A stretch of 64,000 nt of DNA from Oikopleura dioica (GCA_907165135.1 OU015566.1:4588001-4652000), one strand, 5' to 3'; counted from the stretch's first letter, positions 3,421 through 59,038 are shown. Notes: generated from the sequence alone by a model not told the origin. A program made the numbers and translations.

Positions 3421-3830
3421 ACCTGTGTCCAAACCCTGAGTAAGGGCGTGAAAAACGAAGCCGCAATGATGAAAACGGCTACTTTGGAGAAGCGGAGTTT
3501 AGTTTAGTTTAGTTTACTGAAAACTAAACCGCAACCTTTCTCTCGCCTAAGGGCTGGGCTCGGCAACCTGTGTAGAAAACCTGAGTCAGGGTCTGAAAGA
3601 ACTAAAATGAGAGCGGCGCAGCGGCTTTTTAAAAACGAAGCCGCTGCGCGGCTTCGGGAATACTACCAATAAAATCTATAAATAATTCTAGCGAAGCCGC
3701 TTCGCGGCTTCGTTTTCAAAAGCCGCTGCGCGGCTTTTCATTAAAGTTCTTTCAGACCCTGATTCAGGTTTTCTCCACAGTTTGCCGAGCCAAGCCTCAG
3801 GGTTCTCAGACCCTGACTCAGGCTAAGATA
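3420..3830. repeat. Dispersed repeat family carrying ccctgagtcaggg / gaagccgc..gcggcttc palindromes
   Basis: The same motifs recur at ~10790-11036, ~27460-27490, ~33210-33255 and ~39860-39970. Confidence 0.6.
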
Positions 3831-5771
3831 CAGGTTCTTGAACTCATCGTCGTTATCCCGATCTTTCTTCATGAAAAGAACTTCCTCTTCATCAGAAAAC
3901 TCTTTTTCTCGACAAAATCTCTGCATATGAATCATATCTTCATAACTCTGCTCCGAGGGCGTCCTATATCGACAGAGAAAAAATACTTGAGACTGATGAA
4001 AATTTCGCCAAAGCATTTTTTCAGTTTCATTCAATTTCGAGGGCTAAAATGGCGAGTTTCATTTCCAAATCTTGGACAATGCAATTTTCAATTTTCCAAA
4101 GAATGGATAAACGCACGGATTATTTTTAAAACGACTGTATTTTCTTCAGCAGAAACGAGGCGGCCTCTTCTAAAGCGGTATTCGTAAGTCAGGGGCGTTG
4201 TGGAGAGATAAGAAGAGGAAAATTATGTTATCTAAGCACCAAAGCGTATTCTGTTTGCGAAAATGTCTTATCGCGTTTCCGCTTTTAATTTTGACGAGCA
4301 CTCGTTTGAGTATAACTTTCAAGGAAATATGATGTGGATGGCTTTAGGGGTATTTTTATCAAAAAGTATCAATGACTGCAGATTTCCTTTTTTTATCGCA
4401 GTGACACCCTTATTCTAATTTTGTTGTTTGATTTTTCTTTGAAATAATTGACTAAAAACTTTTTAATTTTACAGAAATTTGACAGAATTCCAAATCATAA
4501 ATTTTTTCTTATCGTAGTGACACCCTTATTCTCGTGATGGTGGCATCTCGCGACAAAACTCAACAAATCAAATCAAGACAACAAGTTTTTACTAAAATTT
4601 GACCAAGATTTTGGTCAATTTTGTCACAATTTTTGTCGATTTGTGCCATCATTTCGATAATAAGGGTGTCACTACGATAAGAGAAGAAAATTTAAATGAT
4701 TAGGAATATTCTGCCAATTCCTAATCATTTTTAAATTCTGTCAAATTCGAGAGTTTTTATTCAATTATCCAATTATTTCTAAGAAAAATTGAACAAGAAA
4801 GTTCTTTGGCGCTTTTTTGAGAAGATTAAAGATCGTGTCATAATCTGGCGATTACACAGGTCGAACATTTTTCGCGAGGACGCGCTTCGAATCCCTCTTA
4901 ATTCCTCCTGGCATTAACCTCTTTCTAGGATCTAAAATATTTACGGTTCGCCTTTACGTAATCGTGATTTCGCGGCTTCTCGATTTCGGGAAAAGGCCTT
5001 TTCTTGACGATTTTTTCTAAAAAACGCTTCGTAAAAAATGGAGAAGATCTTCTTGAGCCGAGATGATCTGTCGGATGATCCGGTTCCGACAGTTATCTGA
5101 GACCTGGGCGCGTCATTCAGCAGAGGTCGTCTTCCGGAATGCGTTTCGGAAAGAGACACTTCGTCCCGCTCCTTCACATCAAGAACGGCGGCATCCAGGG
5201 AAGAGTGACAACACTTCTTCTCGTTTTAGAAATGATTATATAAAGTTAAAGTTAAGGGTATAGTAATCGCTCAGGCCTACTTTGAGCTTGAATTCCTCTG
5301 CACTTGTAAATAGTGAGAATGTCCTTCAGTGTTAGAATTTAAGATCTATCTTAGATCTTACTATTGACAAGAGCTTTTTAAAAATTCCTTCACTTTTGCC
5401 ACGTGAGGACCCCTCAAAATTGGCATCTCGGCCAAAATAGGCTATATAAACGGCCGAATTCCTCGAAATTTTACAATAAGGTCTAGAATCTTTTTAAGTG
5501 GATTATGTAGGTCAGACCCTTATCTTAAAATTGACAAGAGCTTTTTCAATTATTATTTTTTTAATTTAAAATTTCTTCTTATAAAAATTTAAAAGTTAAA
5601 ATGAGAACTCTTCGAACTTTCAAGCCGCAATATTTGAAAAATTAAATAATGAATGGATGGAAAATAAAAGTTCTTGAAGAATGAACTTGATTTGGCGAAA
5701 ATGGCAAAAATGTTGAGTCACTTATTCTAAAGAGGAACCCCTTCAAATCACGTGAACCCAGTAATGACGAA

Positions 5772-6347
5772 TTTCAATAAGGATTTCTGAGTGAAATCCT
5801 TACCCCCTTTTTATTGGCTCATCTGAAAAAGCGTAAAAATTACCCTAGTTGAGTCGGAAAGATTGGCGAATTTTCGAACTTATGACGTCATAGCACGTGA
5901 CGGAAGTTACGAAAGTACCAAACTTTGGACGCTTACCATTTTCATGTCGCTTGAGCTATCATGACATGCAATACATGAAAATGATCGTCTGATCGAGATC
6001 TTGGTGTGCATTTAGGTTTCATCCCTCGAAAAAATCTCATCCCTTTTATGAAAATCAGGTACTAGTGATAAAGGGTTGAAAAAATTTTGAAGGGATGAAA
6101 CCTAGATGCACGCATAGCTCTCGTCGCGACAATCATTTTCCACTATCACATGCCCTGATAGCTAAAGTGGATCGAAAATGCGGAGCGTCCAAAGTTTTGG
6201 TACTTTTGGAACTTTGGTCACGTACCATGACGTCATTTCGAGGGAAATTTCATCCTTTTTTGGGCGAATCTAAGATAACTTTTAACGCTCTTTCCAATGA
6301 GCCAATAAAAAGGGGGTAAGGTTTTCACTCAGAAATCCTTATTGAAA
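5772..6347. mobile_element. MITE-like element with ~60-nt terminal and additional internal inverted repeats
   Basis: tttcaataaggatttctgagtgaaa..ttacccccttttttattggctca at the left is mirrored at ~6290-6347. Internal arms gtaccaaactttggacgct / agcgtccaaagttttggtac. Confidence 0.65.
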
Positions 6348-20860: not shown

Positions 20861-21265
20861 AGGTTTTTCAAATTTTTTATGGCCAAAAAACTCATTTAGC
20901 TAATATGAAGGCTTCATTATGTAAAAGTTTGCATTCAAATGACTGTCAAAATGAGAAAGGAAAAGGTCACGTGGGAGAAGTTCCACCATCTGTGCGATAT
21001 TTAAAAATATGCGCGATGGGGAGACAGCTTCATACACTACTTTGGCATTTAGTTCTCCTCTTTATATCGATCGGATAAGATGGGATCGGTGAAGTGTGAT
21101 TAAGGTGATGAGGGTATTTAAAAAAGTAGTTTTTAAGAGTTTTATTAAGAATTTAAAAAGCTCATAAAAATATGCCGATCAAAAAATCTGTAAAAAACGC
21201 GAAAATAAAGATAATTTTCAAAAATATTATCAATTTTGAGGCAATTATTTTTGACCTTGAAAGTA

Positions 21266-21998
21266 CCGTGGTTTTCCATTTTAAGAGCGTTTTTTGGATG
21301 ACAGGCCTCGCTCAAATCGCTCTTAGATTGGAAATTTTTCAATCAAGGTAGGATGACAGTGGGATTTTTAATTTTTCCGTTAAACAAATTGTAAATGTAG
21401 CTATGTCATTTTCAACCCTGTGACAACCTTGTGTTCTGCAAGTACAAAAAAGATCCGATGTTTTCTTGACGATTTCATCGTCGACCATGATCATCTGATT
21501 ATCAAGGAGGAAGATCTAGTGAACAAAGCCAACGAAATCTTCATAAACATGAGTCCAGCAATCTTCAAGCGCTCTTGGATCAATACTGGGCTGATCAAGG
21601 AGGAAGAATTCGAAGGAGCTGTTGAAGATTTTGAGGACTTGGATGTTTTGGAAAGTTTGCTGGAGAAAGAAGACGAGGAAGAGCTGGTCGAGCATTTTCT
21701 GGCGCTTCAAATCGATGAAACACGAGCCGCGACCCCGATGGAGATTGAAGAGGAACCTCAAGTTCAAGTGATAGAGAGTGCCGACACTGCGAAGCCTTCG
21801 ACTTCAAAATGACCAGAAAAGCAGTGAAAGATTACAAACTTTTTTTATAAATGATTCACTGTCAGTCTGAAAATTTTTTGATTTTTAATAAAAATCTTCA
21901 AAAACGCTCTTAAAATGGAATTTTGGCAGATGACAACATTTTCAAATTATACGAAAAAACGCTCTTAAAGTGGGCGCTCTAAAAATGGAAAACCACGG
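21266..21998 (+). mobile_element. Non-autonomous Tc1/pogo-like element (copy 1) with a transposase-like C-terminal remnant
   Basis: TA|CCGTGGTTTTCCATTTT...AAAATGGAAAACCACGG|TA termini. The internal ORF 21420-21812 (..AIFKRSWINTGL followed by an acidic tail) resembles DDE_1-type transposase ends. Confidence 0.75.
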
Positions 21999-24900
21999 TA
22001 TAGAAAAAAATCGTCTGTCAGACAATTTTTGTCTGGTAGACAAAAATACTGTATTGATTATTAAAAGATTTCGAATTACCTCATTTTCTCGAGTTCTAGT
22101 TCTTCTATTCCATCAATTTTCAAGTCTCTTTATTTTTTTTGAGTTCTCGGGCTTGGCTTGTTTCTTTCTTTTTTCAAAATTTCGTACTTGTCGTACCAGT
22201 GTTCAAATTCAAGTGATAAAAGCAGCTCGTCGTTCTTGTCCGGGTGTCGGCGGTTGCGCGCGCACCCGGGATAGCGCGGCGCACCAACGCGCAGAAATAC
22301 CGTTTGCGCCACCTGTACTGTTTTTCTTCCTTCGGTTTACCTGCTATTTTGCAGCTGCTTTATTGGAATATACAAGTACAGCTTATTATTATTTCTTCTC
22401 TCCTGGGAATCGGTCTATAAAAATTTTTTCAACTCATTAATGCTCATTTCAGCATCAAAATTTTCGATAAAAATCGCAATTTTTTCCAGAATTAACCTAG
22501 TAACACCCTTAATTTTAAGATTCAATCGAAGATTGGTCGTCTTTTTACGTCAATTTATTAATTATTTAATTTATTAATTATAATAATTGATAAATTGACT
22601 TAAAAAGAGAACGAATCTTCGATTGAATCTTAAAATTAAGGGTGTCACTAGTTTAATTCCGGAAAAAAGAGTGATTTTATCGAATAATTTTTTTCTTGAT
22701 TGAATTATTTAAATTTTCCCTGCGAAAATTTTCCATCAAAATCCCCTTCTTGGCTTTTATAATAAATATTGCCCTTAGTTTTGGTCTGAAACACCCTTAT
22801 TTTTCGAACACCAAGCTAGAAAGAGAGAGACATCTTTCAGAGTCCGAATATTTTGCTTTGATCCAATCATTACCGTACTGAAAAAAACCTCATTAGCAGC
22901 GAAGCAGGCGGGGAATTCATCTTCATTACTAGCACGCGCACAGTGCCAAGACCGAATCAATAAGGAAGCCAATCTTTTGTCAATTAAAAATTCCTCTTTT
23001 GTCATTTCCAAAAATTTAAAATTCATTTGGAAGTTCCCTCCCTCGGGAAAAGACCTTTTTCTTCCTTGTTTTTGGCTTTTTTTTCAATTTAATTTTTTAA
23101 TAAAAACTTAAAAATAATTAATTTTTGGTATTTTGAATTCCATGTTCGTCAATTGAGGTGCCCAGCATTTAGTCCGACAAATCTCAATTATTCACGGATA
23201 AACCGCTTTAGCATGTCTGTTTTGGAAGCAAACATTTTCAACTCTCTGGGAGAGGCTTAGGTGAATGTCGTGTTTTTTCAACCTCTTGCCAGGCCGCGCG
23301 ACCAGTTTTTTCCTCGTGGGAAAAGATGGATAAAGACTTCTATTTCTGAAAAGGAGGATGAAAGTCAAGAACCCGCTGATTTGATTTTTGAGCTTTTGAC
23401 TTGGCAAAATTTGAGTCAATTTTTCTGATAAAGTTGAAAAAGAAAAATTAAGGGGGTAACCGTCGAATCTTGATTTTTTCGTCGAATATTTTTTGACACC
23501 CTTTAATTCAGTGAAATTAACCTACGAGCGTAGGAATGTCATTTTTCGGACCGAATCGAGGATTTCGAGAGATTTTTCTTAATAAAAATTTGTTTGCGGA
23601 TTGTTATCGCTCAGCAGGTTATCTCCAGCCTTGTCTCTTATCGCCAATCACCATCGCAATTAGCCGAGTTGCCCAAAATAGGACACGGAAGTAGGTTATT
23701 CCCTGCGTTATCGAAAATCACGCCCCGGTGCTTATCGACCCAAAGCTAGAATTTTTCCAAAATTGCAAAAACGGATCAATCTCGGATTAATTGTGGGGTT
23801 TTCAGGAAACGGATAGGAAGAGCTCTTATTGACAAAATATTGGGAAAAAACGGTTGTTTTGAATTTGAAATTGATTTCAGCCAAAATTTTGATTACCGCT
23901 TGGATACCCTTAAAAATCCTCTGGACAGAAATTTGGCCCGACTTTTCGCCTCCAAAATTTCATAATTTTTGGTCGTTTCGAAAACCATAAGCAACTGAAA
24001 ATTGCATAAGCCCCCTTTGTCATTTCCAATGTCAAAAATAGAATTTGGCGCTTCCCAAAATATATAAATACCGGTAGCAAATTCAAATATTCGATCTTGA
24101 GTTGACCTAAGTGAAGGGATAAGACGGCGTCTGCTCGGCGGGGGCTTTCAATTGAAATAAGGGGATCACCTCGTTTTGAATAAATGGGGATTAGGTTTGC
24201 TCTTTTGTTGAAATTTTACGGTATTGAAACGGCCTCGTTTTTTAGGTAGTATGTGGTAATTCGTCGGGCTATGACTCATAGCAAAGGAATGACCCCGACG
24301 AATAGGTGTGTTTTTTATCTTCAATCTGTCGGGATCGACCCCGACGAATGACTGTTATTTCATCTTTCATTTGTCGGGGCGACCCCGACGAATTACCACA
24401 GACTACGGTTTTTTAAGCAAATGAAGAAAAATATGACTCTTTTTCGAAGTAGCTACAGAAAAGTGCATTTTCATCAACGACTCCCTCTTTTGAAATAAGG
24501 GTGTCAATACGTTAGTTTCCATAAGGGTGTCCCTTATGATTTTTTGAAGAAAATTTTCGAGAAATAAGTGATCACTTCTGATCACAGTCAAAATTTCAGG
24601 CAACTAGTCCTGATAGTAGTATATATCATAGCATAGGGTGGTGTCACGTGGCTTAGAGATGTCCACTTGATAAGATGCGCGGATACTTTATGGTGTTAAT
24701 TTTACTCGATCAAATTCTTCGAGTCGAGGTTGTCAGAAAGAAACCATGTTCTCAGTGATTTTAGAGAACTGTATAAAGAAAACTGGCGCGTTTCCAAAAT
24801 ACAAACTCGTTTCCACCACATTAGAGCAATCCTGCGCTAAATCTGCTGAAGCGCATCCTTTGAAGATCACGTGTTCAGTGTTGTTTCGCTGTTTATGCTT

Positions 24901-30100: not shown

Positions 30101-30594
30101 TCTTCCGTTTCTGACACATGGCCCAGTGATGCAACAAAGTTTGAAATTGATGAAAGAATGGCTCTTTTTCTTGCGAGTTCAATTCTTTACAAAAAGAACC
30201 ATTCTTTACAAAGGATGGAACCCCCTCTACCATTTTAAGGTGACTGTCAGCTCAGTTTAGCTCATCTCAATGATTCTTTGAAATGAGCCAGCTCAGCTCA
30301 GCTCAAAAAATGGCCAGTTTAGCTAAGCAAGCGCAGGTTGTAAAATCCTCAGCTGAACTCAACAATTTTCAGAAAAGTCTCAGCGCAGCTCATTTATTTT
30401 TTGAAAAAATCAGCTTACTTTTGAAAGAAGCCAGCTCAACTCAGCTCAGCTCAATTTCGACCTCAGCTCAGCTCAGAAAAATAAAACTCAGAAGATAGCA
30501 ACTCTACCCTGAAGTTCTGCTAGTTTTTTCATTTTAGCCAGAAAATAACGGAGCATTACCTTGTCCACCAAAAGGTCATGTTTTGTTAAAAATA

Positions 30595-31328
30595 CCGTGG
30601 TTTTCCATTTTTAGAGCGCCCACTTTAAGAGCGTTTTTTCGTATAATTTGAAAATGTTGTCATCTGCCAAAATTCCATTTTAAGAGCGTTTTTGAAGATT
30701 TTTATTAAAAATCAAAAAATTTTCAGACTGACAGTGAATCATTTATAAAAAAAGTTTGTAATCTTTCACTGCTTTTCTGGTCATTTTGAAGTCGAAGGCT
30801 TCGCAGTGTCGGCACTCTCTATCACTTGAACTTGAGGTTCCTCTTCAATCTCCATCGGGGTCGCGGCTCGTGTTTCATCGATTTGAAGCGCCAGAAAATG
30901 CTCGACCAGCTCTTCCTCGTCTTCTTTCTCCAGCAAACTTTCCAAAACATCCAAGTCCTCAAAATCTTCAACAGCTCCTTCGAATTCTTCCTCCTTGATC
31001 AGCCCAGTATTGATCCAAGAGCGCTTGAAGATTGCTGGACTCATGTTTATGAAGATTTCGTTGGCTTTGTTCACTAGATCTTCCTCCTTGATAATCAGAT
31101 GATCATGGTCGACGATGAAATCGTCAAGAAAACATCGGATCTTTTTTTGTACTTGCAGAACACAAGGTTGTCACAGGGTTGAAAATGACATAGCTACATT
31201 TACAATTTGTTTAACGGAAAAATTAAAAATCCCACTGTCATCCTACCTTGATTGAAAAATTTCCAATCTAAGAGCGATTTGAGCGAGGCCTGTCATCCAA
31301 AAAACGCTCTTAAAATGGAAAACCACGG
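30595..31328 (-). mobile_element. Non-autonomous Tc1/pogo-like element (copy 2, inverted, near-identical to 21266-21998)
   Basis: Reverse complement of copy 1 with the same TIRs, TA flanks and an identical ORF translation (30781-31074). Confidence 0.8.
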
Positions 31329-31383
31329 TATTTAGTCAAACCGTTTCCAGAAACATGATCGTTTTTGAACGATTGGAATTATT

Positions 31384-50598: not shown

Positions 50599-51006
50599 TC
50601 AGAAATCGTAGTCGTGTCGAATCTCGCCATTCATCAAGGCCTCTCTGATGAGCTCGTCCCGGGCTTCTGGCCAGTTAAGCGGTCGCTCAATCAGCATGAT
50701 GTCTGGATCGTTGAGGACGATGATCTCCATGTCGTCGTCGCTGGAAGAGATGATGATCACTTCATTGTCATCGCTGATTTCGATAACAGAGGAGTCGCTT
50801 GAGTCGGCGTCGTGATCGTGCTCGGTGTCGTTTTGCTCGGCGTTTTGTGTGTAGTCTTGACAGTCGCAGTCCATGTCATCAGAAGGAGGAGGGGTTGGAT
50901 TGTAGTCTACGGTCTCCAGAGAGACGTCGAGGTCAATGTCGACGAGTGATGGCGATTGAGCCGGGTAGACATACATATCGGAATCGGTTTCCCAGCGATC
51001 AGACAT
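50599..51006 (-). CDS. Acidic protein with tandem SUMO-interacting-motif-like segments
   Basis: Intronless ORF MSDRW.. containing VIEISDD, VIIISSSDDD, EIIVLND and DIMLIE. cag|aATG start context. Confidence 0.7.
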   Translation of the reverse strand: MSDRWETDSDMYVYPAQSPSLVDIDLDVSLETVDYNPTPPPSDDMDCDCQDYTQNAEQNDTEHDHDADSSDSSVIEISDDNEVIIISSSDDDMEIIVLNDPDIMLIERPLNWPEARDELIREALMNGEIRHDYDF

Positions 51007-51094
51007 TCTGGTTTGAAGGTTTTTGTTTTCTTGAAAGTAGAATTTTTTTTTTGACTGAATGACCATTTTTGGGTGTGGTTATATTCAGAAGCTC

Positions 51095-51145: not shown

Positions 51146-51346
51146 CAATCGGAAATACTAATCTGATTTTAGTGAAGCGATCAGCGGGGGATTAGACTGC
51201 ATCTGTTCCCAGAATCGGCAGATAGGCCTTAGATTTCCGCCGGATATGTTTGTATAATTGACTTTTCACGGCTTAGCTTCACTCAACCATGGAGAAAATG
51301 GTATATAAGTAGCTCTTAACTCACTAATCTCATCAAATCCAGCAAT

Positions 51347-51622
51347 ATGCCTAAATTCGAAGTTTCTGGCTTTTCTGTCCGAGTTTCCAAAACCTACGGG
51401 TTTTTCGTCACCATCACCGGAACTTGCGCGAATCGAGACGAGCCTATCAAGCTCAAGAAATTCTTCAAGAAAGATGCCTTTGCCGAAGTTCTCCCCGACC
51501 TTGTCGCTGGAGAAATGAACGTGGTCATCATTGGCCGCCGCAACCAGACTGACTTCGAAGCTCGAAACAACATCCAGTACTACGACTTTGTCCTCGAAGA
51601 CATGGACTGGACCGACATGTAA
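51347..51622 (+). CDS. 91-aa beta-rich protein (possible OB-fold ssDNA-binding protein)
   Basis: Clean ORF with strong codon bias, alternating hydrophobic beta-like segments and an acidic C-terminal tip. The fold is a guess. Confidence 0.55.
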   Translation: MPKFEVSGFSVRVSKTYGFFVTITGTCANRDEPIKLKKFFKKDAFAEVLPDLVAGEMNVVIIGRRNQTDFEARNNIQYYDFVLEDMDWTDM

Positions 51623-51719
51623 CTCACAATTCTCTGCGAAACCTCCCTCTCTCTTGTCACGTGGTGTTTTTTCTTGCGCTTTTTTTTTGTGTGCTTTTAT
51701 TTCCAGAAATAAACTTTTC

Positions 51720-52265
51720 TCATTGTAATTTTTCAATGTATATGTTGCAGGTCAATAATTTTCGCAGTTGATAGCCAGATTCATTATAATGACTTTGATT
51801 GCAGTGAGATCTTGAAACAAGATCAGGAATTTCTGACATAGGAGGAAGTTCGTTGACGAATTTTTCAAAAGAGATATCATCTTTGATCAGATTGATGTCC
51901 ATCGGTAGACTAGTGCTGCGCTGCGCCCAAGAGTACCGAAATCTCGCCGATTCATCGGCAGCATCTGGTTTTTCAAGAAGAAAGGAAAAGTCTATCAGAA
52001 GACGAAATGGTGGGGCCAAAAACTCGATTAGTTCCATCAGGATTTCTTTCATGTCGAAATTAGAATCAACAAGGAAAATCAGTATTGCATTTTCCACAAT
52101 TCTGTTTGGTTTCGGCGGGTTGATAATGAGATAATTTCTCAGCTGCCGCAAATTTCCGATCTCTTCGAAAAAATCTAACTCGTCACGCTCAAGTTCGAGT
52201 TCTTGACTTCCAAAAAGAGAAGGCATTTTTTGCAACTCATTTCTCTCGGAAAAATTGAAAGGCAT
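51720..52265 (-). CDS. Orphan ORF immediately downstream of PolB, possibly related to Polinton PolB N-terminal domains
   Basis: Open 181-aa ORF. IDFSFLL..FRY.. and ESGYQLRKLLTCNIYIEK recall the E-x-SGW..I.I.KY motif of Polinton PolB N-termini. Confidence 0.5.
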   Translation of the reverse strand: MPFNFSERNELQKMPSLFGSQELELERDELDFFEEIGNLRQLRNYLIINPPKPNRIVENAILIFLVDSNFDMKEILMELIEFLAPPFRLLIDFSFLLEKPDAADESARFRYSWAQRSTSLPMDINLIKDDISFEKFVNELPPMSEIPDLVSRSHCNQSHYNESGYQLRKLLTCNIYIEKLQ

Positions 52266-52324
52266 TATATTTCAATTGAAAGATTTGAGCAGTTTTAAAG
52301 GAAATTCATCACGCATGAGTAATT

Positions 52325-55300
52325 TTAGAGAAGTTTACCGTCCTTTGAAAGTGGAGTGCACGTTATCTTATCGTTATTTACATACAGTTTAAAAAATACA
52401 TCGCTAAGAAGTCTTTTTGATGTAGAAGTTCGGCAAACTAAGCCGTTTGAAGGTTGACGCCGCAGAGCGGTCAGCTGGAACTTGTTTTCTTCAAGATTTA
52501 CTCCCTTGAGGCAATTCAGCATCGCTTCGAATTCGATTTCAACATTGTGTGGGATACCTTTTGATGATCGTTTGTTCACATCTTTTTCAGGATCAATTCC
52601 AAGATATAATTTATTTCCCAAAGCAATAAGAGCGCCGGATTCTGTTGACCATTCCGCTGAAATGATTTAATCTCTCTTAGTTATTTCGAAAACGCTCACT
52701 TTTCATAAGACCTGGAGTCTTGTCATTTCGCGTTGTATCTTCAATAACAAACCAATCTTGCCATTCCCGGAGAAACGCTTTTCGGAGATGCGGTTTGACA
52801 ATCGGCAGAAAGGTCGATGCAGTCTTTGATTTTCGAGTCTCTCCGGATGGAGCAGTCTTTGTCGTTGCTATCAAAATTTTAAGGGGATAAAAGCAAAGTT
52901 ATCTTACATATAGCGAGACTATCAGTATCGCAGTAGTTGAGCTTGAAACTGCCTTTTTCGAGATATTTGTGGAGGAAATCGTAAACGAATCTTAAAAAGA
53001 GCAATTTCGATTGCTGCAAAATGGCAACAGCCAGCACGACAGGCTTGTCGTCAAGAATCTTCGCTTTCTCCATCGTCACTTGAGAAAGCTCGTAATCTCC
53101 ATCTTCTCGGGTGAGCGGCTCCGAAAATTTGTAGTGCGGTTTCTGAGCTGCGCGCGCGACTTGATCCTCGTTGCAAAAATTAACTCGCGGACGATCCACA
53201 ATTTCCCCCATCTTTCCATACCCGCTTATTTGAACATAATTAACTACAATTTGAAGACGGCTTACCAATTCCCAACCGTTTTAAAAGCATTAGCAAGAGC
53301 GGCTTTCTTCTTCAGAATTGATTGTATGCGTCCCTCTGTGATCGACTCGCAAAATTCTCCAAGGCATTTGTCCGATCTATACTGTACAAATCGAGACACG
53401 TTCGAGATTTTTAGACCAAGAGACATGTAGAACTTGGCGAGCTTTGTTAAAATCAGCAGCTGCTTCCCATTGAAAGTCTGGACGACTGTCTCTTGTTCGA
53501 TCTTTCGATCTGCCATCTTTGCTCTTTCTTTCATGTAGGGCGAAACCAAATCTTCAGTTATTTTCATCCTTTGGATCACTGGCGGGAAATTCATGTGCTT
53601 GATTTCCGATGCGATGTCTTCAGGTGTATTTACATCGGCAACAATGAATCCAAAAACTTGATCATTTTTGATTTCATCAAGAAGATCACCCTCTGTATGT
53701 TGCTGGTACATTTTTCCCCAATGGCGAGAGCGCATCCGGATGTTCTGCTGTTTTTTACGTTTCCAAACGCATTCATGGATGAAAACAAGCGTGCCGCGTT
53801 CCATCAAGACATTTTTCTTTCGTTCCCAATTCTCATCAGCTTCTCCAGGCTTGCAATAAGGACAGCAAGAATGAAAAAAACAACCAAGAAACTCAAAAAA
53901 GTATTTCTTCTCGTCAACACAAGCGTATCCATCTATTGTCCAGTCAAACACTTGGAACTCACCGCGATAATATTGATGTTGAAGAGGAACACGTTCGCCA
54001 TTCTTCGAAACAAGTAGATCACTGTATTCATCAATATACGTAAGCCATTCCAAAGCCACCAGGCTGTTTCCTTTGGCCATAATTTGCTTACGGAAACTAT
54101 CACCTTCGCGAATCCAGCGTATTCCTTAATTTAAATTCTAAACCGTCGAACAATGATGATTACCTGGAGTTGTTGGCATTTCTTGATTTTGAGCATAAAG
54201 ATAGAGCGCATTGAAATCAAGAAATGTTATCTTTGTGAATCTGTCCCCGTTGGGCGCGTACTTTGCATTTTTCGGAGCAGGAACATCATCTCGTAGTTCA
54301 GTATATCGCGAGAAAACATTGACAAGGCCGCCGATAATGTTGCTGCGAAACAGTTCGTGTTCTTCAGTGCTCGTTATGCCGAAGGAGTCTTTATATATCT
54401 TAAGTCAAAATAAAAAATCAACTACTTACATGAAAACGGAGCTGTCTTTGAGTAGTAATTGAATAAGCAAATCATCGCATATTTCGGAAGGCTAAAGCAT
54501 AAAGACGGGTCGACTTTGAAAGCTTTAAAAAAGACTTTGAATTGAGATTCAATCGCTCTGGCAAATGGATTGACGTCAAGCATGTTGTAGTTCTGGAGCC
54601 AGTCGACCATGGAAGTTTGAGGGTTGTTTCTTTTCATTTCTTCAAATTTTCCTTTTTCTTCCAAGTAAAGATCGTGATCAATATTAACGTTCTTTAAATG
54701 AGAAAAGAAGCAGTCATAGTCGGGAAATTCGTGGCAGGTTTCAATCTCCGAAATTGAGTGAAACAGCTCGTACGGCCAGATTGACTTTGTTTCGCCGATT
54801 CCTGCTTGTTCCAGGTACTTTGCAAGTCCGATCGGCGAACCAAACAGCATGGCGTCTTTGAAAGCAAATTTATCCGTCGAAATCGAAAAGAAAGACGAGC
54901 CCTTTTTGATAACATTGAATGATTTTGAGTATCTTTTCTGCAAAAGAGGTATCAAATAAGGAGCCAAGACATTGCAGTCGAATTTGGCGGAGTTAAAGCC
55001 GTAAATATCCATGGAACAGTAACGCTTTAGTTCGTTAAGCAGAGACTGCAGCTTCATCTTTTCTTTTAGATTTTCTTCTTGAAATAAGGTTTTAGTCTGT
55101 AAAAAAAAATGTTTCTTACCGCTGTTGGTGAGTCCGTAAAGTTTTTCAAGAGCAACTGAAAATGCGGGTGGAAGAGACATTTCTGGCGACATGGTCAACC
55201 CTTCAATTGTAAGAACAAACTCTTCTACCATGTTCTCGGCATGAATTGATGAGTCTCCTTTACGCATGATGAACTTGTCGAAGCCAAAATTTGATCCGAT

Positions 55301-56355
55301 TCCAATCGACAAAAGTTTCAAAGATGAATGAATTTCAGTTTCTTGACGTTTATCTCCGAGTGGGCTCTCATAAGTTTCAATATCAAAAGTAACTTAACAT
55401 TATTATTTCAACTTATTCAGGCACGGCTTACCAAATTTCGTCTTTCGAAAAGACTTGTATTTTTCTTCGAGGAGTCCCAATTTTACTAGCTCGCTGATCG
55501 GATTGATATTCTTTCCATATGCTTTGAGAGTCGGTTCAATTTCTCGATTGGCTCTTTTCCTGCAGATAGCTTCATGTGCATCGCGAGTGTCAGCTTTTAC
55601 GAAAGTCATATTGCAGTTTGTATTGCTACATCGGTAGATATTTGACTTGAACGCTATAAATATGTCAGGAAAAGTCTCAAAGAAATTTTAAAAAAACCAT
55701 TTGTGTTGTAGACAACAAAGATTCGCGAGGGCTCATCTTTTTTCACAAACAAGTAAAGCGGTTCCTCGACCTTGGGATTCTTGACCCGAAATCGTCCTAT
55801 TCTTTGAAAGGCGACTCGCTTCTTCAATTGAAATTGATTCGAGTTTGTGTAGAGAATGATTTCACGCCTGATTTCTTTAGCAATGGTAAAGTAATTATCG
55901 GGAGAAAAAGGTCCATGATAATTGAAGAATTTGAGATCCGGCATTTCAATAGCAAAATCTGCTATTCGTTCAAATCGTTTTTCCATCATCTGTAATGATT
56001 TGACCAGCATAAAGTACGGAATCGGGTGGAATAAAACTTTTCCATTTGAGACAATCTCGTAATAGCAAGTCTTTGGTGACCAGAATGCCTCAAGCGTGAA
56101 TTGGTATTTCCCAGTTTTGTTTTTATCGTAAGCTTTTTCTATTTGAATAAATTTGAGGGTATAATGCTCTTCGAATTCTTGTTTTGTTGACAATGGACAG
56201 TCCCTGGAGAGATTACGAACGTAGTTTACAAAACCGGCGCTTGTAAGTAATCCATCGCTGTCAAAAAATATCTGGTAAGGTGTCTCTGAGCGTAAGAGTT
56301 CCCCAATTATCAAAAAAGGGGAAACATTCTCTACTGTTACATTGAATTTTCTCAT
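52325..56355 (-). CDS. polB: Protein-primed family B DNA polymerase, 8 exons
   Basis: Zn-finger-like CSNTNC..HEAIC, ExoI VTFDIET, ExoII GFNSAKFD, RSNIIGG..VFSRY, motif A DFNALY, motif B KTVGNCGYGK, motif C YCDTDS and KTPGLMK.E. Introns at 55654-55697, 55393-55431, 54389-54429, 54125-54163, 53225-53265, 52868-52907 and 52657-52699. Confidence 0.95.
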
Positions 56356-56566
56356 GAGAGTCTGAGCTTGAGAGATGCTTTTATTGCTAGGAAATAAGGT
56401 CAATTGTATCACCAGTGTTTATTGATAAAAGATTGGGAGCAGTCAAACAATAGGAAAAAGGTCAAAAGTGGCAGAAAAGAAAAGAAATCGCAAGAAAAGG
56501 AGTAACAAAAAAGGAGTGAGAATAAGAAGGAATGACAGAAAAAAGTGTTTCGTGGAGAAGAGTTTA

Positions 56567-57326
56567 TCATTGTTTCTTTGCTGGTGTTTCTAAATATCAT
56601 CAGTGTTTGAAAATAAAGAAAACGCTTACTTGGAAAGAGTCGTCGAGGCTTCATTCGTCTTGGAACAGGATTCTTTCGTTTGATTTTCCTTGCAGACTCG
56701 ATAGGGTGCATTGTGTGAGCTGTCTCCACCATTTGTTCGAGAACAACGTAGTCAGAATTGGATGGTTCAGTGGATCCTTCGAAGAAGACCTCGAGGTCAT
56801 CATCGCTCGGTATGTTGATGGCAATTGATGAGTTCGATGTTGCGTGAAGCCGTTCAAATCTAGGAACGACCATTTCCACTTCAGTTTGAGTTGATGCGTC
56901 TCGCATAATAGGCTCGTCCTCGTTGTCATCGTTACATTGCTCGCATTGACAGTCGTCTTCAGACATGGCAGAGCTGGAGTCGTCGGAGCTGTATTGCTCG
57001 GCGCTGTCTGCTACGATTTGCCCTGGTAATGGAGCCCATTCTGGATCAGCGGTCATGTCGGAGTCCGAAGAGTGGAGGGAGACGCTTTCATCATCATTAT
57101 CAGCAAGGATCATGTTCTCAATGAGTTGAACTCCATCATTATCGAAGTCGAGATTGTCTGCAAGCTCTCCTAAATGAAACTATAGAAAAGGTTTGAAATT
57201 ATCTAACTCACTTGTTAGTTTGTTGAAGTCATCAGCGTATTCAACTGGAACATGATCGGCTTCCTCAGCGTACTCGAGTGCTATTTCATACAATCGGAGA
57301 TTGTAAATTTTAGAAGTAGCAACCAT
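56567..57326 (-). CDS. Acidic disordered protein ending in an NLS-like basic stretch, RRLF and TPAK
   Basis: Two GT-AG introns join MVATSK.. / RELADN..MILAD.. / KTPAKKQ*. Contains CQCEQC and RDASTQTE. Confidence 0.6.
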
Positions 57327-57459
57327 TTTATCGGCTATTTTTTTTAGATTGTTCATTTCAACTGATGACCTGCTTTTGAAATTTGCGGTTAAATACGAGA
57401 GTTTATGGTTCAGTTGAATCGCAATTTATTCGGGAAAACAAGATTACAGGTCACGGTTA

Positions 57460-57622
57460 AAACGGAAGAATGGCAGCAGTCTGAGATCAAAGAAACAGTG
57501 TAAAAGGCACGGTGCGTTGGCGAAGCAAGAAGAAAAAAAACGGAAGAATGGCAGGAGTCTGAGATCAAAGAAACAGTGTAAATGGCACGGAGCGTTGGCG
57601 AAGCGTGAAGAAAAAAAAACGG
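57460..57622. repeat. Two tandem ~80-nt copies
   Basis: cggaagaatggcag.agtctgagatcaaagaaacagtgtaaa.ggcacgg.gcgttggcgaagc occurs twice. Confidence 0.85.
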
Positions 57623-57717
57623 CGGATGATTTTTGGCGGAAGTGTTGTATTTACATCGGATTGTCTTGAGGAAGCGGAGGTCTGAACATGTGTAAAATGT
57701 AGTAATCCGATTATTAC

Positions 57718-58033
57718 CTATTCGGATTTGAAACGTTGTGGGCTCTTGCGGGCGCGGAGAGATCGTCTCGGAAGTGCCTGAAAAAGGATTATTAGGATTA
57801 TAAAGTTTGAGCAATTACCTGTTGTCTAGCCGGGGCGCGTTGTCTAGCCGGGACGCGTTGAGGAGTCGGGGCGCGTTGAGGAGCCGGTTCTCGTGCGAGT
57901 CGCGGGATTCTTCGTCGTGGCTGTCGAATTGGCTAAATAATAAAGAAGATAAAGACTAAGGATCATTCTTAACCTCTGGTAGCGGATGACGTGGCCACCA
58001 TCGTGGAAGCTGAATATTCAGGTTGTTGTTCAT
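57718..58033 (-). CDS. ~77-aa Arg/Pro-rich basic protein with a 6-aa repeat
   Basis: Three exons in phase 0: MNNNLNIQLPRWWPRHPLPE / PIRQPRRRIPRLARE(PAPQRA-like x4) / ALPRRSLRARKSPQRFKSE*. Confidence 0.55.
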
Positions 58034-58091
58034 GAAGTCTGCGAAGCCTCTCGGGTTGACTTGAAAGTTATTAATAAATATTTGAAAAAAC

Positions 58092-58317
58092 TCAATTACG
58101 TAGGACAATCTTCAGGCAATACAGCAGCCAAGCCACCAGGAGGACCAGAAGAGTAATGCGCCAATCATAAACCTCAATTTGGCCAGAAAAGAGGTCTGAA
58201 AGAGACTTTAAAGAAAAAACATGGAGGATGTGGGTTACTTATGATTGACGAAAGCCCAGGTCTTGGGGTGGTTGGCGGGCGTGTTGGATCGTTGGGGCCA
58301 GTTGGAAAGGCAACCAT
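58092..58317 (-). CDS. ~60-aa single-TM protein
   Basis: One intron joins MVAFPTGPNDPTRPPTTP.. to ..WRITLLVLLVAWLLYCLKIVLRN*. Confidence 0.5.
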
Positions 58318-58487
58318 CTCTAAACTGAAAATGGTAAGTAAAAATATTTTTTTTTTTTGGACAGTCATAAATGGCTCAAATTGATCAATTGATCAAGATG
58401 GGCCGCTTACCACCGTCCGGCACTTTTTTTTATACGAAAACAAGAAAAAAGATCAGGCCTAAAATTTACAGAACTAAAACGGGCAAT

Positions 58488-58748
58488 TTATAAAAGAGGA
58501 GCTGGCGGGTGAAGGAATCGATGGTGAACGCGGAGAAAATCACGGCGCAGCAGTCGAAGAATGTGAGTGATGATGGATGTTAGGACGAAAATCGTCATCA
58601 TGAGGGCGGTGATCGTGGCAAGGAACCAAATGTCCGGTTTAAGTAAAACCTTCCTCTCGTCGAGGAGGATTTCTACCAAAACTTTTTGGAAATTCGGATC
58701 CGAGTCAAAATCCGATGGCAACGCATCGTCGCGTATGCAACTCGCCAT
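58488..58748 (-). CDS. 86-aa single-TM protein
   Basis: IWFLATITALMMTIFVLTSIITHIL followed by a basic stretch. tag|aATG start context. Confidence 0.55.
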   Translation of the reverse strand: MASCIRDDALPSDFDSDPNFQKVLVEILLDERKVLLKPDIWFLATITALMMTIFVLTSIITHILRLLRRDFLRVHHRFLHPPAPLL

Positions 58749-59038
58749 TCTAAATATGTAAAATGATTAATTCTTTCCCTTTGACTTTCTTCTAATTTCG
58801 TTAACGTTCGTCAGTAGTACAAAAAACAATCGTCATTCTTATACAGTCTACATTCTTATACAGTCGACATTCAATTTACCCCGCCAAGTTCACCGCTTAT
58901 AGAGCTATGCAATATAAATGGTCAAAATGACGGGGGAAACAAACTTCCTAAAGGCGGGCTTCTTCTCGGTTGGTAGGAGTGGCGGTCGGCTGCTGCTCAG
59001 CGGCTAAAATAACACTAAGTTGCCATATAAATTGAACT

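Follow-up and report, generated by a model that had tools for sequence, protein, structure and literature searches.

The window analyzed here, a stretch of 64,000 nucleotides (nt) from Oikopleura dioica (GCA_907165135.1 OU015566.1:4588001-4652000), contains a protein-primed family B DNA polymerase gene of a Polinton/Maverick element that is predicted to be split by eight short spliceosomal introns. The locus raises the question of how a gene of viral type came by them: were the introns inserted into this copy, or were they inherited within the element lineage? A sequence-only reading of the same DNA had recognized seven introns and regarded them as gains into a viral gene. According to our analysis, the eight introns are most likely old gains that the element lineage acquired stepwise and handed down, with losses or parallel gains at some sites. 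We place the gains in the lineage and not in this copy because, at each position, at least one diverged relative has an intron too.

The polymerase gene and its predicted introns

The exons encode what we take to be the motifs ExoI-III and PolA-C, plus a Vsr-like insert.

56355-52325, minus strand: protein-primed family B DNA polymerase gene, Polinton/Maverick; 9 exons, 3702 nt, 1233 codons plus stop

The largest exon matches the gene model g1235.t1 on chr1 of O. dioica OKI2018_I69 at 100%. A polymerase exon search returned eight hits among 1481 candidates, namely g1235.t1, four paralogues and three metagenome proteins; the paralogues are 42-56% identical and lie on chr1, PAR and YSR of the same assembly. 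Pfam gave no hit on the polymerase or capsid frames of the window, and a PDB sequence search gave no match. PF03175 scored above the cut-off in the relatives P0004, P0009 and P0010, though not in the window's own gene model; the first hits in the Atlas are PF03175 at 0.96, and the closest Atlas clusters that have taxa come from molluscs and cnidarians.

The exon structure was obtained with a spliced aligner written for this analysis, which scored the window solely with the seven other proteins of alignment A1. Four of these seven are gene models, and independent support comes from metagenome open frames and DNA loci. The homologue-only alignment yields eight GT..AG introns (44, 39, 42, 41, 39, 41, 40 and 43 nt) with 0 stops and 0 frameshifts. 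In the following list, site numbers are positions on the database gene model, and counts refer to the related metagenome loci (L001 and others, see below) that cover a site.

55697-55654, minus strand: intron 1, site 366, 44 nt, phase 1, donor GTTTTT; 1 of 3 covering loci (only L001)
55431-55393, minus strand: intron 2, site 440, 39 nt, phase 1, directly before ExoI (KF|VTFDIET); 4 of 7 covering loci
55119-55078, minus strand: intron 3, site 531, 42 nt, phase 1, in frame and stop-free; 3 of 7 covering loci
54429-54389, minus strand: intron 4, site 747, 41 nt, phase 1 (APFS|YSF); 3 of 17 covering loci
54163-54125, minus strand: intron 5, site 822, 39 nt, phase 1 (PTTP|GI), CCAG|GA context; 3 of 17 covering loci, patchy
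53265-53225, minus strand: intron 6, site 1108, 41 nt, phase 2, within polymerase motif B; 6 of 10 covering loci
52907-52868, minus strand: intron 7, site 1214, 40 nt, phase 1, after motif C (DTDSLAI|S); 5 of 9 covering loci
52699-52657, minus strand: intron 8, site 1270, 43 nt, phase 1 (PGLMK|TE); 8 of 8 covering loci, the most widely shared

All seven introns of the sequence-only reading reappear here on the minus strand with their lengths, GT..AG ends and restored frame, and each contains an in-frame stop. Its count fell short by one: intron 3, recovered from homologues alone, is the only one of the eight without such a stop and was probably overlooked for being in frame and stop-free. The motif contexts KF|VTFDIET, GNC|GYGK, DTDSLAI|S and KTPGLMK|TE had been read correctly, the GNC|GYGK cut falling within the Cys codon.

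The introns average 41.1 nt and 73% A+T, against 37-46% G+C in the exons (calculated while the boundary of exons 1 and 2 was 24 nt off). At three of the eight junctions, the called pair is the sole frame-keeping GT..AG pair within 15 nt. The segments have the properties of U2-type spliceosomal introns, i.e. GT..AG ends, restoration of a conserved frame on removal, and retention in relatives, and we predict that they are removed by the host spliceosome. The model g1235.t1, itself a prediction and not proof, has eight junctions identical to ours, with an upstream acidic frame fused on. It joins this frame (56409-57326) to the polymerase and bypasses the likely start at 56355; because L001 has a matching start, this joining is probably an error of annotation. 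Each of four raw RNA runs yielded 0-6 partial reads and likewise left the adjacent host TFIIB-like gene uncovered, and four contig sets contained only pieces of 19-73 nt with no exon joints among them.

Intron positions in diverged relatives

A scan of metagenome contigs produced 21 related loci out of 493 pattern matches, of which 19 were tabulated (L020 and L021 were excluded as weak alignments). The scan required two unbroken motifs, so that loci with introns inside these are under-sampled; scans of viral_contigs found no relative. In the table of sites, 532 and 884 were merged into 531 and 882, and the donor of site 678 was shifted by 15 nt to a GT. Together with the window, the 19 loci define 19 intron sites in the polymerase, eleven of them exclusive to other lineages.

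All eight positions of the window recur in the metagenome loci, whose carriers are 35-64% identical to the window protein. The closest locus, L001, has seven of the eight introns, lacking that of site 822, and L006 has six. Between the window and L001, differences are found at 21% of second codon positions and at 68% of 266 fourfold sites. That positions, splice ends and frame have been kept while silent sites saturate is, we infer, the best evidence for splicing in working elements. The sequence-only reading had held that the sharing of all positions across distant hosts would speak for ancient introns rather than gains, and in this respect its interpretation had to be revised in part.

The interiors of the introns tell a different story: not one of 33 orthologous pairs, and not one of 28 formed within the gene, exceeded shuffled sequences at the 5% level. 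The search for source repeats, suggested by the sequence-only reading, was likewise fruitless within this window, with no match to the introns in the rest of the window longer than 13 nt exact (15 nt with one mismatch). Similar introns at unrelated sites, the hallmark of introners, were not seen in this window, none of the 28 pairs being alike. After this complete turnover, the interiors no longer reveal source sequences, and saturation of the intron sequences likewise hides the molecular source. The expectation that the gene would serve as a dataset for mechanisms of intron gain therefore holds for timing, phase and choice of site; the origin of the inserted sequence is not legible, and losses or parallel gains are included. 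In L001, the orthologue of intron 4 (3585-3865) is expanded to 281 nt by a 12-nt tandem repeat, which is also present upstream of the gene in the same contig (850-1130).

These observations bear on the proposal that the introns were inserted into this copy after integration, for instance by a host transposon of the introner type. Their lengths resemble the short introns of the host, transposon insertion and intron transposition have been listed for Oikopleura (PMC3443670), and Polinton-like elements of dinoflagellates harbour introners, most of them acquired after integration according to the available portion of PMC12166617. Yet 8 of 8 positions are common to relatives with 35-64% identity, fourfold sites are near saturation relative to L001, and neither the intron pairs nor the rest of the window offers a likeness beyond the 13 nt mentioned above. 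Recent gain is largely refuted by the shared positions and is, in our judgement, barely credible.

Gains, losses and parallel gains

The 150 best matches of a profile search against 1.84 billion representatives were listed, and 149 of them were aligned. Among these best 150, 65 of the 94 polymerases with less than 30% identity span the core unbroken. All nine full-length read-through polymerases that were looked up are contig-level records, and for this reason such proteins are likely single exons, judged from the level of the record and not from their DNA. On a tree with 151 tips, with intron presence counted from DNA only, one change each suffices at sites 366, 440, 531, 747 and 1214, two are needed at 1270, three at 822 and four at 1108. 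At site 747, 134 of 142 tips read through.

A 22-row tree was rooted on five read-through proteins, with supports from the Shimodaira-Hasegawa-like approximate likelihood ratio test (SH-aLRT). The carriers form nested clades: the window with L001 (support 100; site 366), then with L004 and L006 (97; sites 531 and 747), then with L009 (80; site 440), and finally with L002, L003 and L005 (99; site 1214). Sites 1108 and 1270 extend to the base of the tree, which is an open fork. On these comparisons, intron 1 is the youngest of the eight. In an approximately unbiased (AU) test, a single group of all read-through full-length proteins was not rejected (p 0.35), and the carriers of 822 (p 4e-44) and 1108 (p 7e-05) were rejected as clades. 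The idea that the introns are gains into a gene of viral type is supported by the distant read-through polymerases and by the five introns that require single changes in nested clades.

An inverse history, in which an ancestral Polinton polymerase was rich in introns and most lineages lost them, leaving the eight as relics, appears very unlikely to us. Losses do occur, as seen from the absence of site 822 in L001 and from the uninterrupted capsid frames described below, and site 1270 is occupied in all eight covering loci. But outside the smallest carrier clades the proteins covering a site read through, as at site 747, and the core genes of intact Mavericks from vertebrates and nematodes are without introns, as far as the available parts of the two reports go (PMC8097293; bioRxiv 10.1101/2022.07.12.499685).

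Another reading invokes hot spots, i.e. favourable sites (protosplice contexts, conserved motifs) at which introns were inserted more than once, in which case sharing would overstate the age of the introns. Site 822 has a perfect CCAG|GA in 4 of 4 carriers, which are not a clade according to the AU test, and a single gain would entail five losses. Furthermore, close but distinct pairs of sites occur at motifs (810/812, 1212/1214, and 1108 versus frame ends at 1113). Against this, five sites are explained by a single change apiece within well supported nested clades, the window sites 747, 1214 and 1270 are without protosplice flanks, and parallel gain generally accounts for about 8% of shared positions (PMC3488318, available portion). 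As an account of the whole pattern, hot spots are possible but somewhat improbable.

Near motif B, the metagenome polymerase frames of P0072, P0073, P0075, P0077, P0009 and P0010 stop directly after GYGK. Out of 97 fragment ends, 15 and 8 open-frame ends correspond to sites 1108 and 1113, respectively; the frames ending after GYGK (8 of 97) suggest a second motif B intron site five codons from 1108. The capsid tree has a 99% clade of 18 uninterrupted frames that lies within interrupted ones (midpoint root, weak basal support), an arrangement that points to intron loss in this gene as well.

Several points weigh against old, inherited gains. Because sites 822, 1108 and 1270 need three, four and two changes, and the carriers of 822 and 1108 are no clades, part of the sharing may be parallel gain. 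The deep branches among the intron-bearing clades are poorly supported (0.50; open fork) and do not fix which of the two oldest introns came first. Some of the read-through proteins could be spliced gene models or derived from RNA, and splicing itself is deduced from DNA alone. For the metagenome loci, the statement that length follows the host is derived from the observation that length follows lineage. Finally, this copy may not be mobile, since the window is without integrase and terminal repeats and its polymerase block is inverted with respect to the capsid gene when compared with four loci. Stepwise gain with inheritance remains the interpretation that we prefer.

Length, phase and context of the introns

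Intron length tracks lineage, with medians of 41 (26 introns), 49 (11), 266 (7) and 137 nt (30); at site 1270 alone, the length ranges from 40 to 214 nt across loci. For host introns of O. dioica, the available excerpts report a median of 49 nt (PMC8008620), a peak at 47 nt, A+T richness and 11% non-canonical introns (PMC8008620, PMC5240408, PMC3488318), and an even spread over the phases (PMC3488318). The neighbouring host Sec24-like gene has eight candidate introns of about 34-56 nt, whose boundaries are uncertain and only partly frame-consistent, and a motif scan for the length spectrum of host introns gave no clear peak. Element and host introns are alike in being very short and A+T-rich; those of the element differ in their slightly smaller size (39-45 nt), in being GT-AG throughout, and in a bias to phase 1. 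The resemblance in size emphasized by the sequence-only reading is apt for the short, narrow range, whereas the mean lies slightly below the host median.

Phase 1 is found in seven of the eight window introns (p 0.003) and at 13 of the 19 sites (p 0.002), compared with an expectation of one third, and the excess persists once G| or AG| sites are taken into account (p 0.01-0.03). An exonic G precedes 15 of the 19 sites, and the excess of phase 1 would be partly explained by insertion or survival favouring such sites. Conservation around the sites is modestly raised (p 0.05-0.13 for the eight, 0.01-0.06 for the 19 sites, over three window sizes); a first run without site 1270 gave p 0.14 and 0.05, respectively, and the test is biased by the easier detection of sites in conserved regions. 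Five window introns lie at or beside conserved motifs, and those at 366 and 531 sit in poorly conserved sequence. To say that several introns lie at catalytic motifs is thus correct as a description, but the enrichment of the eight is marginal.

Could selection have retained the introns as a control device, with a splicing-dependent polymerase that ties replication to the cell state or the host, or disguises the transcripts as host RNA? The in-frame stops in seven of eight introns, the five introns at or beside motifs together with the conservation around the 19 sites, and the corrected excess of phase 1 against even host phases (PMC3488318, in part) are in line with it. However, stops are expected in A+T-rich 40-mers, the motif enrichment of the window's eight reaches only p 0.05-0.13 with detection biased to conserved regions, and no conserved sequence is found within the introns. 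Moreover, some lineages lost or never had introns (sites 822 and 1108; the 18-member uninterrupted capsid clade). A regulatory role is not directly supported, and we regard selective retention of this kind as decidedly unlikely. A bolder version, which seems to us rather unlikely, is that a branch of animal polintoviruses became splicing-dependent, with stop-bearing, mostly phase 1 introns at catalytic motifs, resized in each host, acting as a replication switch or host-range lock. If so, surveys based on open reading frames would have overlooked such elements or taken them for dead.

For stepwise gain and inheritance, the following mechanism can be proposed. Polintons copy DNA to DNA. A gained intron would for this reason be handed to every daughter element and could disappear only through exact deletion or recombination with complementary DNA. 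The element would be transcribed by host RNA polymerase II in the nucleus, and splicing would be required for the polymerase and the capsid protein. Intron interiors would drift freely and their lengths would drift towards the size that the host splices, while insertion or survival would favour sites following an exonic G.

The capsid gene and the context of the element

Besides the polymerase gene, the following features of the element were recognized:

63790-62501, minus strand: major capsid protein gene, three exons; aligns to its family, double jelly roll by the fold of a member
63501..63545, minus strand: capsid intron 1, 45 nt, phase 2, common to L003, L005 and L006
62786..62827, minus strand: capsid intron 2, 42 nt, phase 0, common to L001 and L006
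63825..64000, minus strand: 3' end of a likely adenain-like protease gene, cut by the window edge; matches L003:4958-4818 and L006:7507-7337
51720..52271, minus strand: 183-codon frame after the polymerase; same place in L001, L002, L003, L005 and L006
51320..51622, plus strand: 100-codon frame; homologue in the same place in L001

The model of the capsid family member P0012 (48-row alignment; score predicted for the local distance difference test, pLDDT, 86) matches the PBCV-1 capsid protein with Z 25.6 and a root-mean-square deviation of 3.5 over 345 aligned residues, and also matches other viral capsid proteins. The protease matches fall inside frames of L003 and L006 with PF00770 hits, above the cut-off in L003 and weak in L006. 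By polymerase, capsid protein and protease, the element is a Polinton/Maverick. Beside the polymerase, L003 and L006 encode an rve integrase, an adenain-like protease, a P-loop frame and a capsid-like gene. The rve integrase is present in L003, L006 and L017 but not in the window, which ends within the element; the P-loop frames of L006 and L017 have weak Pfam NTPase hits only, and none is found in the window. No terminal repeats were found around the element, whose second end lies beyond the window. Polymerase and capsid gene have the same orientation, with the polymerase block (51320-57326) downstream, whereas the capsid gene converges on the polymerase in L001, L003, L005 and L006; the arrangement reflects an inversion or two adjacent elements.

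Host genes adjoin the element, and the other DNA of the window is compact host sequence (Frizzled, ADAM, potassium channel, Sec24-like and TFIIB-like genes). One might hence suppose a domesticated host gene that gained introns like any other gene of Oikopleura, the more so as its frame is intact and the window holds neither terminal repeats nor integrase. We consider this highly improbable: at least four diverged paralogues lie on chr1, PAR and YSR, the same introns occur in loci bearing integrase, protease and capsid genes, and a capsid gene is found 6 kb away.

Some further observations concern the surroundings. Small genes between the polymerase and the capsid gene (56400-62250) contain many intron candidates of 36-45 nt, and 58.8-60.1 kb is a diverged tandem duplication. 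Short acidic frames at 50599-51078 and 61566-61874, without Pfam hit, have repeated hydrophobic-then-acidic stretches, presumably comparable to SUMO-interacting motifs. Near-identical inverted copies of about 740-747 nt (21261-22001 and 30592-31333) lie 8.6 kb apart; as ends of an element they were set aside, since they enclose host-type genes (CUB- and kinase-domain frames). A palindromic repeat of the window (5945-6316) resembles the far end of L006 (10365-10613) in translation, a hint that L006 may come from a related host.

Comparison with known systems

Mavericks are a known repeat class in O. dioica (PMC5240408, available part). The element shares with the Polintons of vertebrates and nematodes (polintoviruses, adintoviruses) the protein-primed PolB, the double jelly-roll capsid protein, the adenain-like protease and, in relatives, the rve integrase. 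In the accessible sections of the respective reports, the core genes are intronless in 134 intact vertebrate Mavericks (PMC8097293), in a nematode Maverick with introns only in cargo genes (bioRxiv 10.1101/2022.07.12.499685) and in virophage-like EMALEs (PMC8547959). Here, by contrast, the polymerase has eight introns and the capsid gene two, inherited across diverged elements. The consulted part of one large survey states that endogenous viruses lack introns and uses a prokaryotic gene finder on this premise (PMC10120064). Our finding contradicts the working assumption of intronless Polinton core genes, under which intron-split lineages would be missed or counted as fossils.

A second comparison concerns the Vsr-bearing pPolB2 Polintons of marine nematodes and molluscs (bioRxiv 10.1101/2023.08.22.554363). 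The polymerase of the window carries an insert with FEFLGCFFH between motifs A and B, a likeness based on the motif and not on a tree; Vsr gave weak Pfam hits in two of ten distant relatives and none on the window exon. Spliceosomal introns are not mentioned in the available text of that report, and none in Polinton core genes were found in the available portions of PMC8502044, PMC11296320, PMC12220804, 10.1101/2024.03.25.586562 and 10.1101/2023.08.22.554363. We found no published report of inherited introns in an animal Polinton polymerase, although the original Polinton papers, the larvacean transposon survey or supplements may already mention introns in Mavericks of Oikopleura.

The nearest published report, to judge from its available part, is that of dinoflagellate eupolintovirus elements bearing introners (PMC12166617). 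Both systems have spliceosomal introns inside integrated Polinton-like elements. The introners, however, are repeated transposon families, mostly acquired after integration and mostly outside coding sequence, whereas the introns described here are unique sequences in core genes at positions that have been kept. Because the gene began without introns and is copied from DNA to DNA, its rooted tree documents gains and losses together with phase, the context of the sites and changes in length (19 sites in 19 loci and the window), and lineage-specific intron length may help to assign unplaced metagenome elements to their hosts.

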